The notes under the pieces were generated by a model that was not told the origin of the DNA, did not search any database, and was given only the letters and a program-made list of their open reading frames with translations. Shown here in pieces: positions 2,830 to 5,099 of a stretch of DNA of 11,485 bases; positions within the stretch are counted from its first letter, which is position 1, and each line of letters starts with the position of its first letter. The stretch comes from a virus. The position numbers were made by a program, and so were the translations under genes. The stretch lies in IMG/VR virus record IMGVR_UViG_3300044941_000346. The stretch is one strand, 5' to 3'.

Positions 2830-3705
2830 TCACCACCTGACCGGGATGCGCTCCGGCACGCCATCGCCAAACGTCTCGTAGAGGTTCAAGCGATCCATAT
2901 GCACATAACCGATGTGGCAGCCGCAGGTCTCGTTGGTGCAGGGCGAGCGCACGAGCGTTGTGTCGAAGCCCTCGTTGTAGATGTTGCCGATCGGCGTTTT
3001 GATGAAGTGACAGCGCCGCGCAGTGCCATCGCCGTCAACCGTAAAAGCGCTGTAGCCCGCGCGGCATGAGGCGCCAAGCGAGGCGTGGCGCGTGGCGTTG
3101 TAGCGAAAGAGCGGATCGATCTGCTCAAACTTTAGCAGGTCAAGCTCTTGGTAATAGCCAGGGTCGCGCTTGTAGGCGTTGATCCACATGTAGACGCTTG
3201 GATCCAGCTCGGCGCGCAGCGCATTTAGCTCGTCGAGCGCGTCCTTGAACCCCACAGCGCCCACCGAGTAGCGCACGCCGCGCGTGTCCAGCTCGCGGCA
3301 CTTGGCCACAAACCCCGCGCGCGTGATCTGGGTCGGGTGGTACGTTGTCCACAGCGCCAGCACGTTGCGGTTGGCGCGCTCGGTCCAGCCAAGCTTGCAT
3401 GTCAGGTTGGTTTGGATTGCCGCACGCCACACATGGGGCATGTGGCTTAACTCAATCAGGGCCTCCTGATAATGTCGCCTTATCAATCCCTCGCCCCAGG
3501 GCGTAAACAATAATCCGATCTGCTTATCTGTGCGGAGGCGTATCCACTCGACAAAGCGCTCTAGCTTTAGTCGATCATCCTCTAGCTCCGCGCGTGTATT
3601 GCGGGTCTTGGCAAATGGGCAGTAGTCGCAAGCATAGTTGCAGCTCGACAGCGGACCGCGATACAAGATCACCCATCTGTCTGCAGCCTCGTGTGGCGTC
3701 TTCAT
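2830..3705 (-). CDS. Radical SAM enzyme, compact (291 aa), with a twitch/SPASM-like Cys-rich C-terminal region; resembles what I recall as the STM4011 family radical SAM protein
   Basis: The CxxxCxxC motif SSCNYACDYCPF lies at nt 3619-3642. C-terminal cysteines form CX12GX4C (CRAGYSAFTVDGDGTARRC) followed by CX4CXC (CTNETCGC), at nt 2917-3066. I chose the ATG at 3705-3703 (MKTPHEAADRWVILYRG...) because it forms an ATGA overlap with the upstream TGA stop (3704-3702). The 17-codon extension in the track ORF (to 3756) lies inside the upstream gene. Confidence 0.85.
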   Translation of the reverse strand: MKTPHEAADRWVILYRGPLSSCNYACDYCPFAKTRNTRAELEDDRLKLERFVEWIRLRTDKQIGLLFTPWGEGLIRRHYQEALIELSHMPHVWRAAIQTNLTCKLGWTERANRNVLALWTTYHPTQITRAGFVAKCRELDTRGVRYSVGAVGFKDALDELNALRAELDPSVYMWINAYKRDPGYYQELDLLKFEQIDPLFRYNATRHASLGASCRAGYSAFTVDGDGTARRCHFIKTPIGNIYNEGFDTTLVRSPCTNETCGCHIGYVHMDRLNLYETFGDGVPERIPVRW

Positions 3706-5099
3706 GTGATCGCAAAGCCCCGCATCATTGCCTCCACCTTGGGCGAGTTCATCCACGGGCCGATCACGTCCGAGGCGTCGATCCCACGCTGCGTCAGCGC
3801 GAGCGTCCCGGCCTCACGGCGCACCAGCCCCAGTGCCTCCAGCTCCGCCACCTGTGGCAGCGCCTCGTCGAGCGACACCCCGAACCTGCGCGCAAACAGG
3901 GCGAGGTCGAGCGCGTGTGCGCCGCCATCGGCCAAGAGCGACACCACCACGAAGCGGCGCTGCTGCTCGGCCTCGTCCAGTAGAAAGCCGTAGTGGACCG
4001 CACCAAAGAACTCAGCGGGGCGCTGCACCCAGTCCTCGATGATGTGTACCACGCTGCGTCGTCCCACCGCCCACTCCGTCGAGTAGTGCAGCCCGCGCGT
4101 GTAGGATCGCGCGCCTACGCCCAGGCCCACCATCCCATCCGTCGCTGGGTGGTACGCCGGCCCGCGCGTGCGCGGTGTATGATCGGCACGCACGAACATC
4201 CGCATCGATCGCTGATTGTAGCCATGGGATAGAAGATAATCGCGGCCCTGTTGATACAGATCATAGCGCCAGTCATCCCACGCCTTGTCCGAGTTTCCTA
4301 GTCCCGTCAGCGGCCTCACATACAGAGGATACAAGAAGATCTCCTCGGAGCCATACGCCACCGCCGCTTCAAGCGAGCGCTCCCAGCTCTGTGCTGTCTG
4401 GCCCTCGATCCCGTAGATGAGGTCGATGTTGCGCTCCTCAAAGCTGCCGCTCGCCAAGAGTTCAAGCGCGCGCTCCAGCACCTTGTGCCGCTGCGGCCTG
4501 CGCACCGCCTTGGTCTCCGACTCCAAGAAGCTTTGCACCCCCATCGACACCCGCGTCACGTTAAATCTCTTTAATATGTCGATCTTCGATGGTGTCAGCG
4601 TCTCCGGGCTGACCTCACACGAGAGCGGGATCTGCGGCGCGCTGCCGCCCAGCGGCGCCCCCATGATCCCGGCCGCGACCCGCTCAAACAGCGCCTCAAG
4701 CGACGCGTCATCCAGCTGCGTCGGCGTCCCGCCCCCCACCGCCATCCGCGCAAACCCCACCTCGCGCTCGCCCAGCGCGCGCCGCGTCTGCTCGGCCTGC
4801 CGCGTCAGCGCCCCCAAGAAACCCCTGTGCAGCGCATCGCCTGGCTTGGCCATCGCGAACAGGTTACAGAACCCGCAGCGCATCTCGCAGAACGGCACAT
4901 GAATATACAGGTAGAGCGCGCGCGTGTCCTCCTCGCGCCAGACCTCCTCCAGCTGCAGTGCTGGCTCGATCGGGCGATAGGCCGTCTTATGCGGATAAGC
5001 GTAGGCATAAGATTGAAACGGTGAACCGGTCAGCCGCATGGCGAGCGTCCCGGTCGGCATCGCCGTGTGCGGTGTCGTCGTGATCTGTGTCGTCGTCAT
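3702..5099 (-). CDS. HemN/HemW-like radical SAM enzyme (oxygen-independent coproporphyrinogen-III-oxidase-like family, 465 aa); resembles what I recall as the STM4012 family radical SAM protein
   Basis: The motif HVPFCEMRCGFCNLF (CxxxCxxC) lies at nt 4866-4889. The HemN-family hallmark GGGTP is present (MAVGGGTPTQL), as is a long C-terminal HemN_C-like region. I chose the ATG at 5099-5097 (MTTTQITTTPH...) because it forms an ATGA overlap with the upstream TGA (5098-5096). The track ORF extends 43 more codons to 5228, inside the upstream gene. Confidence 0.85.
   Translation of the reverse strand: MTTTQITTTPHTAMPTGTLAMRLTGSPFQSYAYAYPHKTAYRPIEPALQLEEVWREEDTRALYLYIHVPFCEMRCGFCNLFAMAKPGDALHRGFLGALTRQAEQTRRALGEREVGFARMAVGGGTPTQLDDASLEALFERVAAGIMGAPLGGSAPQIPLSCEVSPETLTPSKIDILKRFNVTRVSMGVQSFLESETKAVRRPQRHKVLERALELLASGSFEERNIDLIYGIEGQTAQSWERSLEAAVAYGSEEIFLYPLYVRPLTGLGNSDKAWDDWRYDLYQQGRDYLLSHGYNQRSMRMFVRADHTPRTRGPAYHPATDGMVGLGVGARSYTRGLHYSTEWAVGRRSVVHIIEDWVQRPAEFFGAVHYGFLLDEAEQQRRFVVVSLLADGGAHALDLALFARRFGVSLDEALPQVAELEALGLVRREAGTLALTQRGIDASDVIGPWMNSPKVEAMMRGFAIT

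Follow-up and report, generated by a model that had tools for sequence, protein, structure and literature searches.

A radical SAM enzyme pair assigned to the STM4011-STM4015 cassette, with a predicted twitch-type auxiliary site and a glutamate-ending leucine-rich repeat protein as candidate carrier

The ATP-grasp ligases RimK, LysX, MptN and CofF have a terminal glutamate as their acceptor, namely the C-terminal glutamate of ribosomal protein S6, the C-terminal glutamate of LysW and the glutamyl tails of tetrahydromethanopterin (H4MPT) and F420. The LysW-type system comprises a zinc-ribbon carrier of about 54 residues (LysW), tailoring enzymes of the LysZ/LysY/LysJ type and a release hydrolase of the LysK type. 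In amino-group carrier systems, represented by LysW/LysX, ArgW and Vzb22 in DADH biosynthesis, the ligase acts on the terminal glutamate of the carrier, and later enzymes then act on the tethered group (PMC9303977). The 11,485-nucleotide stretch of DNA analysed here (IMG/VR virus record IMGVR_UViG_3300044941_000346; the whole stretch is hereafter the window) likewise encodes a protein with an acidic C-terminal tail ending in glutamate, STM4015, and an ATP-grasp ligase of the RimK/LysX clade, STM4014, together with two adjacent genes for radical S-adenosylmethionine (rSAM) enzymes, to which an earlier note made from the letters alone had drawn attention. We identify this pair, almost certainly, as STM4012 and STM4011 of the STM4011-STM4015 cassette, with a twitch-type auxiliary site. 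The pair belongs to catalogued, functionally uncharacterised families and is not an orphan discovery.

Five curated NCBIfam families, whose names STM4011-STM4015 derive from genes of Salmonella Typhimurium LT2, match the proteins of the window: NF006067 (STM4012, 526 bits), NF038073 (STM4011, 386), NF038075 (STM4013, 406), NF038074 (STM4014, 333) and NF038076 (STM4015, 228). The STM4015 score comes from a truncated copy, and the other four proteins lie above their cut-offs. STM4012 matches positions 1-425 of the 427 in its model (525.8 bits, cut-off 380) and STM4011 positions 2-278 of 278 (386.2 bits, cut-off 200); at E values of 8.6e-158 and 8.1e-116, respectively, chance is no issue for these assignments. 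All the genes of interest are carried by the minus strand, and the features of the rSAM pair are as follows.

3702..5099, minus strand: STM4012-family HemN-like rSAM enzyme, 465 amino acids (NF006067; Radical_SAM and HemN_C domains)
4866..4889, minus strand: STM4012 CxxxCxxC motif (C71, C75, C78) followed by N-L-F, invariant in 76 homologues
4722..4736, minus strand: STM4012 GGGTP motif, residues 122-126, invariant in 76 sequences
3702..3705, minus strand: ATGA stop/start overlap of STM4012 and STM4011 ('...atc aca tga' against 'atg aag acg')
2830..3705, minus strand: STM4011-family compact rSAM enzyme, 291 amino acids, with no N-terminal RRE
3619..3642, minus strand: STM4011 CxxxCxxC rSAM cluster motif (C22, C26, C29), invariant in 81 of 81 homologues
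2917..3066, minus strand: STM4011 twitch-like auxiliary region C214-x12-G227-x4-C232...C256-x4-C261-x-C263, with the five cysteines and the glycine invariant

The earlier note had placed an ATGA overlap between the two rSAM genes, and it is indeed found on the minus strand, where the STM4012 stop codon TGA (3704-3702) overlaps the STM4011 ATG (3705-3703). Across many phyla, at least 46 of 78 loci show an NTGA overlap of 4 nt between the two genes; the coupling is therefore conserved and no chance feature of the window. Annotated Salmonella and Paenibacillus records show the same 4-nt overlap, and the window shares its gene order with them. In the window and in nearly all of a set of 80 related loci taken from GTDB species representatives, STM4011 lies directly downstream of STM4012 in an STM4013-STM4012-STM4011 block. 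What is peculiar to the window, compared with the cassette as catalogued in NCBIfam, is the fusion of STM4014 to a HAD phosphatase, the insertion of about 3 kb of tail-less leucine-rich repeat (LRR) paralogues and the presence of a vault-protein homologue after STM4011.

The compact enzyme, STM4011, is the member of the pair with a predicted second iron-sulphur site. In an alignment of 81 sequences (34-63% identity), C103 and C136 vary, unlike the cysteines of the motifs. The CX12GX4C and CX4CXC spacings that the earlier note had read in the C-terminus are borne out at C214-G227-C232 and C256-C261-C263, and the conservation of all five cysteines and the glycine extends to all 81 homologues. 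The structure prediction agrees with an auxiliary-cluster fold: the AlphaFold2 (AF2) model (predicted local distance difference test score, pLDDT, 91) places a beta-hairpin at residues 220-230, and it most resembles the twitch/SPASM enzymes BlsE, SkfB and MoaA. Its fold neighbours also include DesII, AbmM, viperin, SuiB, PqqE and EpeE. A full SPASM domain is defined by the seven-cysteine motif CX9-15GX4C...CX2CX5CX3C...C, which corresponds to two auxiliary clusters; this motif is absent from STM4011, which has five cysteines and a distal CX4CXC. Pfam SPASM (PF13186) gives 17.8 bits on STM4011, below the gathering threshold of 21.5, and covers only positions 1-41 of the 67 in the model; of 68 family members, 16 reach E<=0.01, likewise below threshold and in the first half of the model. 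STM4011 does have the half-SPASM (twitch) arrangement, that is, a CX9-15GX4C beta-hairpin after the (beta/alpha)6 core, with cysteines enough for one auxiliary cluster. Because five invariant cysteines coincide with a sub-threshold match to the first half of SPASM, the tail is a predicted twitch-type single auxiliary site and not a full SPASM domain, a refinement of the twitch/SPASM-like tail of the earlier note. From the described twitch enzymes (BtrN, MoaA, SkfB, BlsE, DesII), STM4011 differs by its distal CX4CXC and its low sequence identity (10-13%), and a search of PDB sequences with the STM4011 family profile returned no real match.

The presence of SkfB, SuiB, PqqE and EpeE among these fold neighbours would fit a classical pathway for peptides that are ribosomally made and post-translationally modified (RiPPs), in which an unrecognised short precursor would be modified by the rSAM enzymes and the ATP-grasp ligase, and a gene caller applied to the metagenome did call a reading frame of 37 amino acids just after STM4011. 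This open reading frame (ORF), MSIVTSIDAAVAATRLHIGFHGVGGAAFISTTHKVDG, lies at 2709-2822 on the minus strand, 7 nt after the STM4011 stop, with GAGG upstream; it is probably not a gene, as it has no counterpart at the other loci. The absence of an evident precursor, as stated in the earlier note, holds across the 80 loci: no conserved ORF of 20-90 amino acids directly follows STM4011, and no small ORF is conserved before STM4015 or elsewhere. The genes within the cassette are packed too tightly to conceal a precursor. Moreover, neither Pfam nor the AF2 model reveals an RRE (RiPP recognition element) or any other N-terminal domain in STM4011, where the cluster motif begins at residue 22. A RiPP pathway is therefore highly unlikely.

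STM4012 resembles the class C, HemN-like rSAM enzymes (HemN, HemW, ChuW and the NocN/NosN-type methyltransferases) in its CxxxCxxC motif, its GGGTP motif and its HemN_C domain. The HemN/HemW signature noticed earlier is thus genuine, both of its elements being invariant in the 76 homologues, and Pfam detects Radical_SAM at 62 bits and HemN_C at 37 bits. The solved structures nearest to STM4012 are those of NocN (7e-18) and HemN (1e-17). The similarity to HemN, the HemN_C domain and an older tag of the family model, PRK08208, might suggest a role in haem or tetrapyrrole metabolism, in which STM4012 would oxidise coproporphyrinogen III, chaperone haem or degrade it, the remaining proteins being accessories. 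STM4012 however scores below the cut-offs of HemN (TIGR00538; 107.8 bits against 324.95, over the N-terminal half only), HemW (TIGR00539; 121.9 against 205.4) and ChuW/HutW (TIGR04107; 109 against 400). The HemN motif is CxxxCxxCxC, with a fourth cysteine. In STM4012 the motif reads CEMRCGFCNLF, and the 76 sequences contain neither this fourth cysteine nor any other conserved cysteine. No tetrapyrrole genes are conserved near the cassette, and in Salmonella a true hemN lies a few kilobases away. We regard a haem function as very improbable, and the caution of the earlier note, that a HemN-like protein need not be a coproporphyrinogen oxidase, was well placed. STM4012 is predicted to be HemN-like in fold and yet outside all characterised subfamilies, under every equivalog cut-off and in a deep family of its own.

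The cassette is widespread. The order STM4015-STM4014-(HAD)-STM4013-STM4012-STM4011 is colinear in most of the 80 loci, which span more than 10 phyla; hosts include Pseudomonadota, Myxococcota, Planctomycetota, Verrucomicrobiota, Bacteroidota, Bacillota, Chloroflexota, Armatimonadota, Melainabacteria-like lineages and Actinomycetota, and copies are also found on megaplasmids of Deinococcus, Streptomyces, Methylobacterium, Paenibacillus and Bacteroides. The STM4011 family numbers 4,738 clusters at 90% identity and the STM4015 family about 1,650 clusters at 50% identity (E<=1e-30). The tightest block is STM4013-STM4012-STM4011; STM4015-STM4014 forms a second block, which is sometimes inverted or a few kilobases away, and its two genes remain adjacent even then (L008, L013, L016, L025, L037, L026, L038). 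When the 10,282 ORFs of at least 40 amino acids in the 80 loci were clustered all against all, neither another widely conserved neighbour nor a conserved small ORF emerged. At seven loci, no riboswitch or other RNA element near the cassette was related to it. The literature searched mentions the locus tags only incidentally, in a transcriptome table, a sigma-54 chromatin immunoprecipitation table and a selection scan, and gives no function for the cassette.

A further rival is a role in anti-phage defence or conflict, with the LRR protein as the sensor of an invader and the rSAM enzymes as makers of a toxic nucleotide. PADLOC found nothing significant among eight proteins and only weak, generic rSAM similarities (PDC-M51A at 4e-9 to part of STM4012; pVip at 0.003). 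The flanks are ordinary housekeeping genes, such as ompL and typA/glnA in Salmonella, where the cassette sits between ompL and typA. Among phage records the cassette is found only in two from Salmonella, both of which look chromosomal. A role in defence is thus highly unlikely.

The strongest indication of what the cassette may do comes from STM4015 and STM4014, whose features in the window are the following.

10788..11485, minus strand: LRR protein of the STM4015 family, truncated at its N-terminus by the end of the window
10791..10829, minus strand: conserved STM4015 tail DDDDD-YWYVEVGE-COOH, the proposed ligation or modification site
5913..7745, minus strand: STM4014 ATP-grasp domain (residues about 1-385) fused to a HAD-IA phosphatase (about 390-610) (NF038074, HAD_2)

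The STM4015 frame remains open up to the window end, and the full protein (P0121, 309 amino acids, 100% identical) is modelled by AF2 as an RNI-like LRR solenoid (pLDDT 94.8). In the family, 294 of 297 sequences end in glutamate (101 of 103 database homologues, 52 of 52 locus copies and 141 of 142 representatives of 50% clusters, the one exception among the latter being an unrelated LRR giant of 5,264 amino acids). In a logo of 139 distinct tails, positions -20 to -8 are 41% Asp/Glu and are followed by [YW] at -8, R at -7, Y/F at -6, V/I/P at -5, any residue at -4, V at -3, G/S/T at -2 and E at -1. The window copy ends DDDDDYWYVEVGE and that of Salmonella ...DIYMNAMYTE. WGR, BRCT, TIGR02996, signal-peptide-like and Lon-N-like segments and a tandem duplication are among the N-terminal fusions and variants of STM4015 modules. 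Whatever the N-terminal fusion, the chain stops immediately after the glutamate, and the fused homologues P0169, P0171, P0174, P0183, P0217, P0224, P0273 and P0332 all end in ...V[GST]E-COOH. A related structure has been deposited by structural genomics as an 'uncharacterized protein' with no assigned function (PDB 2RA8, Bacteroides fragilis Q64V53); its N-terminus extends about 50 residues further, and its chain runs 8 residues past the terminal glutamate (362 against 354), presumably as a tag.

The neighbouring ligase is closest to enzymes that act on just such an end. STM4014 scores 333 bits against NF038074 (cut-off 175). A PDB search with a profile of 28 STM4014 ATP-grasp sequences returned LysX first (1uc8, 1uc9, 3vpd; 1.2e-5), then RimK (5zct, 4iwx; 1.4e-4), with D-Ala-D-Ala ligases ranking behind both; single STM4014 and STM4013 sequences found nothing in the PDB, and profiles were needed. 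Among the 28 members, 18 match the NCBIfam model for RimK (best 4.5e-10), 16 that for MptN, 13 that for LysX and 8 that for CofF, and 21 match the Pfam YheC/D-type ATP-grasp. The alpha-L-glutamate ligases RimK, MptN and CofF are the families nearest to STM4014. The equivalog cut-offs are missed by a wide margin (the window protein reaches 23 bits where 143 are required), and S6 is not encoded nearby, so that STM4014 is best described as a predicted relative of the RimK/LysX clade and not as RimK or LysX proper.

We propose that STM4015 would serve as a carrier or scaffold, with its C-terminal glutamate ligated by STM4014 and the tail then acted upon by the rSAM enzymes and the phosphoesterases of the cassette. 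This is suggested because an invariant terminal glutamate occurs on a protein encoded beside a ligase of the terminal-glutamate type, the genes being always together, and we consider that the proposal could equally prove right or wrong. The earlier note had named the LRR proteins, or a small molecule, as candidate substrates; the former can now be narrowed to STM4015, which bears the glutamate tail, since the two LRR paralogues beside the ATP-grasp gene lack it. The parallel with LysW-type systems has its bounds: STM4015 is an LRR solenoid of about 300 amino acids, not a zinc-ribbon protein of some 54 residues, and the tailoring enzymes of the cassette would be two rSAM enzymes and phosphoesterases. 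Homologues of LysZ, LysY, LysJ and LysK and a release peptidase are all absent from the cassette, which besides the ligase and the LRR protein contains only the rSAM enzymes, an enzyme of the alkaline-phosphatase superfamily and phosphatases.

The phosphoesterases bear on what the substrate may be. The window encodes the first of them, STM4013, overlapping STM4012.

5096..5929, minus strand: STM4013/SEN3800-family hydrolase of the alkaline-phosphatase superfamily, likely start ATG at 5923
5096..5099, minus strand: ATGA stop/start overlap of STM4013 and STM4012

STM4013 scores 406 bits against NF038075 (cut-off 250), and a search with its profile brings up sulfatases, NPP-type phosphodiesterases and phosphoethanolamine transferases (E 4e-6 to 1e-3). 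Within the family, T62 and H66 never vary, and D24 and D237-H238 are at least 90% conserved. Because the CxPxR formylglycine motif is absent, STM4013 is a predicted phospho(di)esterase or phosphotransferase with a threonine nucleophile and not a sulfatase. The HAD domain fused to STM4014 in the window matches HAD_2 at 2e-17, and 28 of 48 complete loci encode a YjjG-like HAD-IA phosphatase. Seven other loci were checked, and in these the frame of the HAD match is not that of STM4014, so that HAD is a separate gene there. Three Firmicutes from different families encode a PHP-domain phosphoesterase directly after STM4011 (L076 10869-11615, L077 10843-11592, L078 about 10871-11611), and the L077 gene overlaps STM4011 by 4 nt. 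The PHP enzyme of Firmicutes fills the accessory-phosphatase role that HAD-IA has elsewhere, where the HAD gene lies between STM4014 and STM4013. In Salmonella, a Cof-type HAD-IIB gene overlaps the end of STM4011; whether it is a cassette member is uncertain, and the case is weakened by E. coli, where none of 5,426 complete genomes contains the cassette and the match is confined to a short part of the Cof-type HAD gene. The recruitment of phosphoesterases of unrelated folds argues that the pathway makes or removes a phosphate ester, and a phosphorylated building block fits this better than a purely peptidic substrate. The small molecule offered as an alternative substrate in the earlier note may thus take part in phosphorylated form, in addition to the LRR protein.

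These enzymes also suit the main rival of the carrier proposal, a free small-molecule pathway that would build or salvage a modified nucleotide, nucleoside or sugar phosphate, with STM4015 as a non-catalytic adaptor or regulator and a tail that is structural. An NPP-like enzyme of the alkaline-phosphatase superfamily alongside a YjjG-like HAD, with PHP or Cof-type enzymes at some loci, would be at home in such a pathway, and the structural neighbours of STM4011 include the nucleotide and sugar-nucleotide enzymes BlsE, MoaA, DesII, AbmM and viperin. The trio STM4013-STM4012-STM4011 can occur without an adjacent STM4014 or STM4015, and the STM4015 tail is modelled at pLDDT above 80. Such a pathway would however leave unexplained why 294 of the 297 STM4015 sequences end at a motif-preceded glutamate, and why a ligase of the terminal-glutamate clade travels with STM4015; the latter objection is only partial, since MptN and CofF act on the tails of small molecules. 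On balance, we consider this rival unlikely.

Several observations weigh against the carrier proposal itself. A number of planctomycete loci have STM4013-STM4012-STM4011 alone within ±10 kb, and STM4014 resembles LysX and RimK only modestly (E 1e-5 to 1e-10). In the AF2 model of STM4015 the final 20 residues are a coil at pLDDT 82-86, and the tail may thus lie against the solenoid and owe its conservation to structure. Tail-bearing TIGR02996-LRR paralogues (...RYVSLSE, ...RFVQVSE) were also observed far from STM4011-STM4014, at L085 9001-10155 (Archangium) and on the contig of P0222; these orphans could be extra clients modified in trans or a sign of a structural tail. The cassette has no conserved amidase or peptidase by which a product could be released. 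We know of no precedent for an LRR carrier of 300 amino acids, and to our knowledge the described carrier-protein pathways lack phosphoesterases.

The remainder of the window is arranged around the cassette. In the 5' to 3' direction of the minus strand, the order is STM4015, LRR remnants, two LRR paralogues, STM4014-HAD, STM4013, STM4012, STM4011 and the vault-protein homologue, and the LRR insertion comprises the following.

9852..10573, minus strand: two short ORFs of 148 and 92 amino acids, which resemble an LRR gene from this paralogue group that has been split or has degenerated
8989..9855, minus strand: LRR paralogue of 288 amino acids, without the glutamate tail
7733..9001, minus strand: LRR paralogue of 422 amino acids, without the glutamate tail, ending ...DPWWMA (Pfam LRR, partial NF038076 match)

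About 3 kb between STM4015 and STM4014 (7733-10825, minus strand) is taken up by the paralogues, which have the N-terminal module '...ELRSLL..P....W..LC.LL' in common. The set consists of two intact genes, the split pair of 148 and 92 amino acids and a 61-amino-acid remnant that overlaps the STM4015 stop; 4-nt overlaps chain them to the operon, and none bears the terminal-glutamate tail. The 422-amino-acid paralogue is itself translationally chained to the operon by overlaps, the STM4014 ATG at 7736 forming an ATGA overlap with it, and from the 92-amino-acid remnant to STM4011 all junctions are stop/start overlaps (NTGA, with 11 nt at STM4014/STM4013). GC skew is strongly negative (-0.16 to -0.33) over 5500-9000, that is, across STM4014 and the LRR genes, and probably reflects the coding-strand composition of genes rich in Arg, Ala and Leu. 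At 131-2611 (minus strand), 218 nt downstream of STM4011, lies a gene for a major vault protein homologue of 826 amino acids with MVP_shoulder (1.3e-27), Vault_3 and Band_7/SPFH domains, a bacterial counterpart of the eukaryotic major vault protein; we rejected it as a cassette component, as the gene is missing from all 80 related loci. On the source contig (L083), which is 19.5 kb long and comes from a JGI metagenome, positions 650-2448 upstream of STM4015 carry genes for an Omp85/POTRA outer-membrane protein and a SUI1-family translation factor, which look like ordinary housekeeping and not like a mobile or defence island. The loci most similar to the window come from Bradymonadales and other Myxococcota.

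The carrier proposal can be set out as a series of steps, all of which we infer from the sequence features described above. The LRR protein STM4015 would act as the carrier or scaffold through its invariant acidic tail with a Glu-COOH end. STM4014 would activate a carboxylate of the terminal glutamate as an acyl phosphate and ligate an amine to it, be it that of an amino acid or of a phosphorylated metabolite with an amino group, a step that would mirror RimK on ribosomal protein S6 and LysX on LysW. STM4012 and STM4011 would then tailor the tethered group or residues of the tail by means of 5'-deoxyadenosyl radicals; STM4012 may act on a propionate-like side chain by HemN-type chemistry, or else transfer a methyl group in class-C fashion, and STM4011 may use its putative auxiliary cluster for oxidation, decarboxylation or the formation of a C-C or C-X bond. 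HemN decarboxylates a propionate group, and the side chain of glutamate is the same group. A HemN-style reaction on the terminal glutamate is therefore chemically conceivable, if speculative. STM4013 and the accessory phosphatase (HAD-IA in the window, PHP in Firmicutes) would carry out the phosphate ester steps on the building block or product. Taken further, the cassette would embody a new kind of carrier, an LRR solenoid with a glutamate handle onto which the ligase loads a block that both rSAM enzymes remodel, possibly by oxidative decarboxylation of the glutamyl propionate side chain or by forming C-C or C-methyl bonds, while the phosphoesterases process a phosphorylated precursor. We advance this fuller version tentatively, as somewhat more likely to fail than to hold.

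We found no paper that links STM4015 and its invariant C-terminal glutamate to a ligase of the terminal-glutamate type and to a pair of rSAM enzymes, and this link makes the system directly testable. The hosts of the cassette are soil, aquatic and gut bacteria and include a genetically tractable pathogen. If the tail proposal is false, a nucleotide or a sugar phosphate is the product to which the recurrence of phosphoesterases points. If it is true, the cassette would provide an rSAM branch of carrier-protein-assisted biosynthesis and substrates for two orphan rSAM families, and this would be a third, rSAM-based branch of scaffold-assisted biosynthesis beside the LysW-type carriers and the pearlins, present in more than 10 phyla and in Salmonella.

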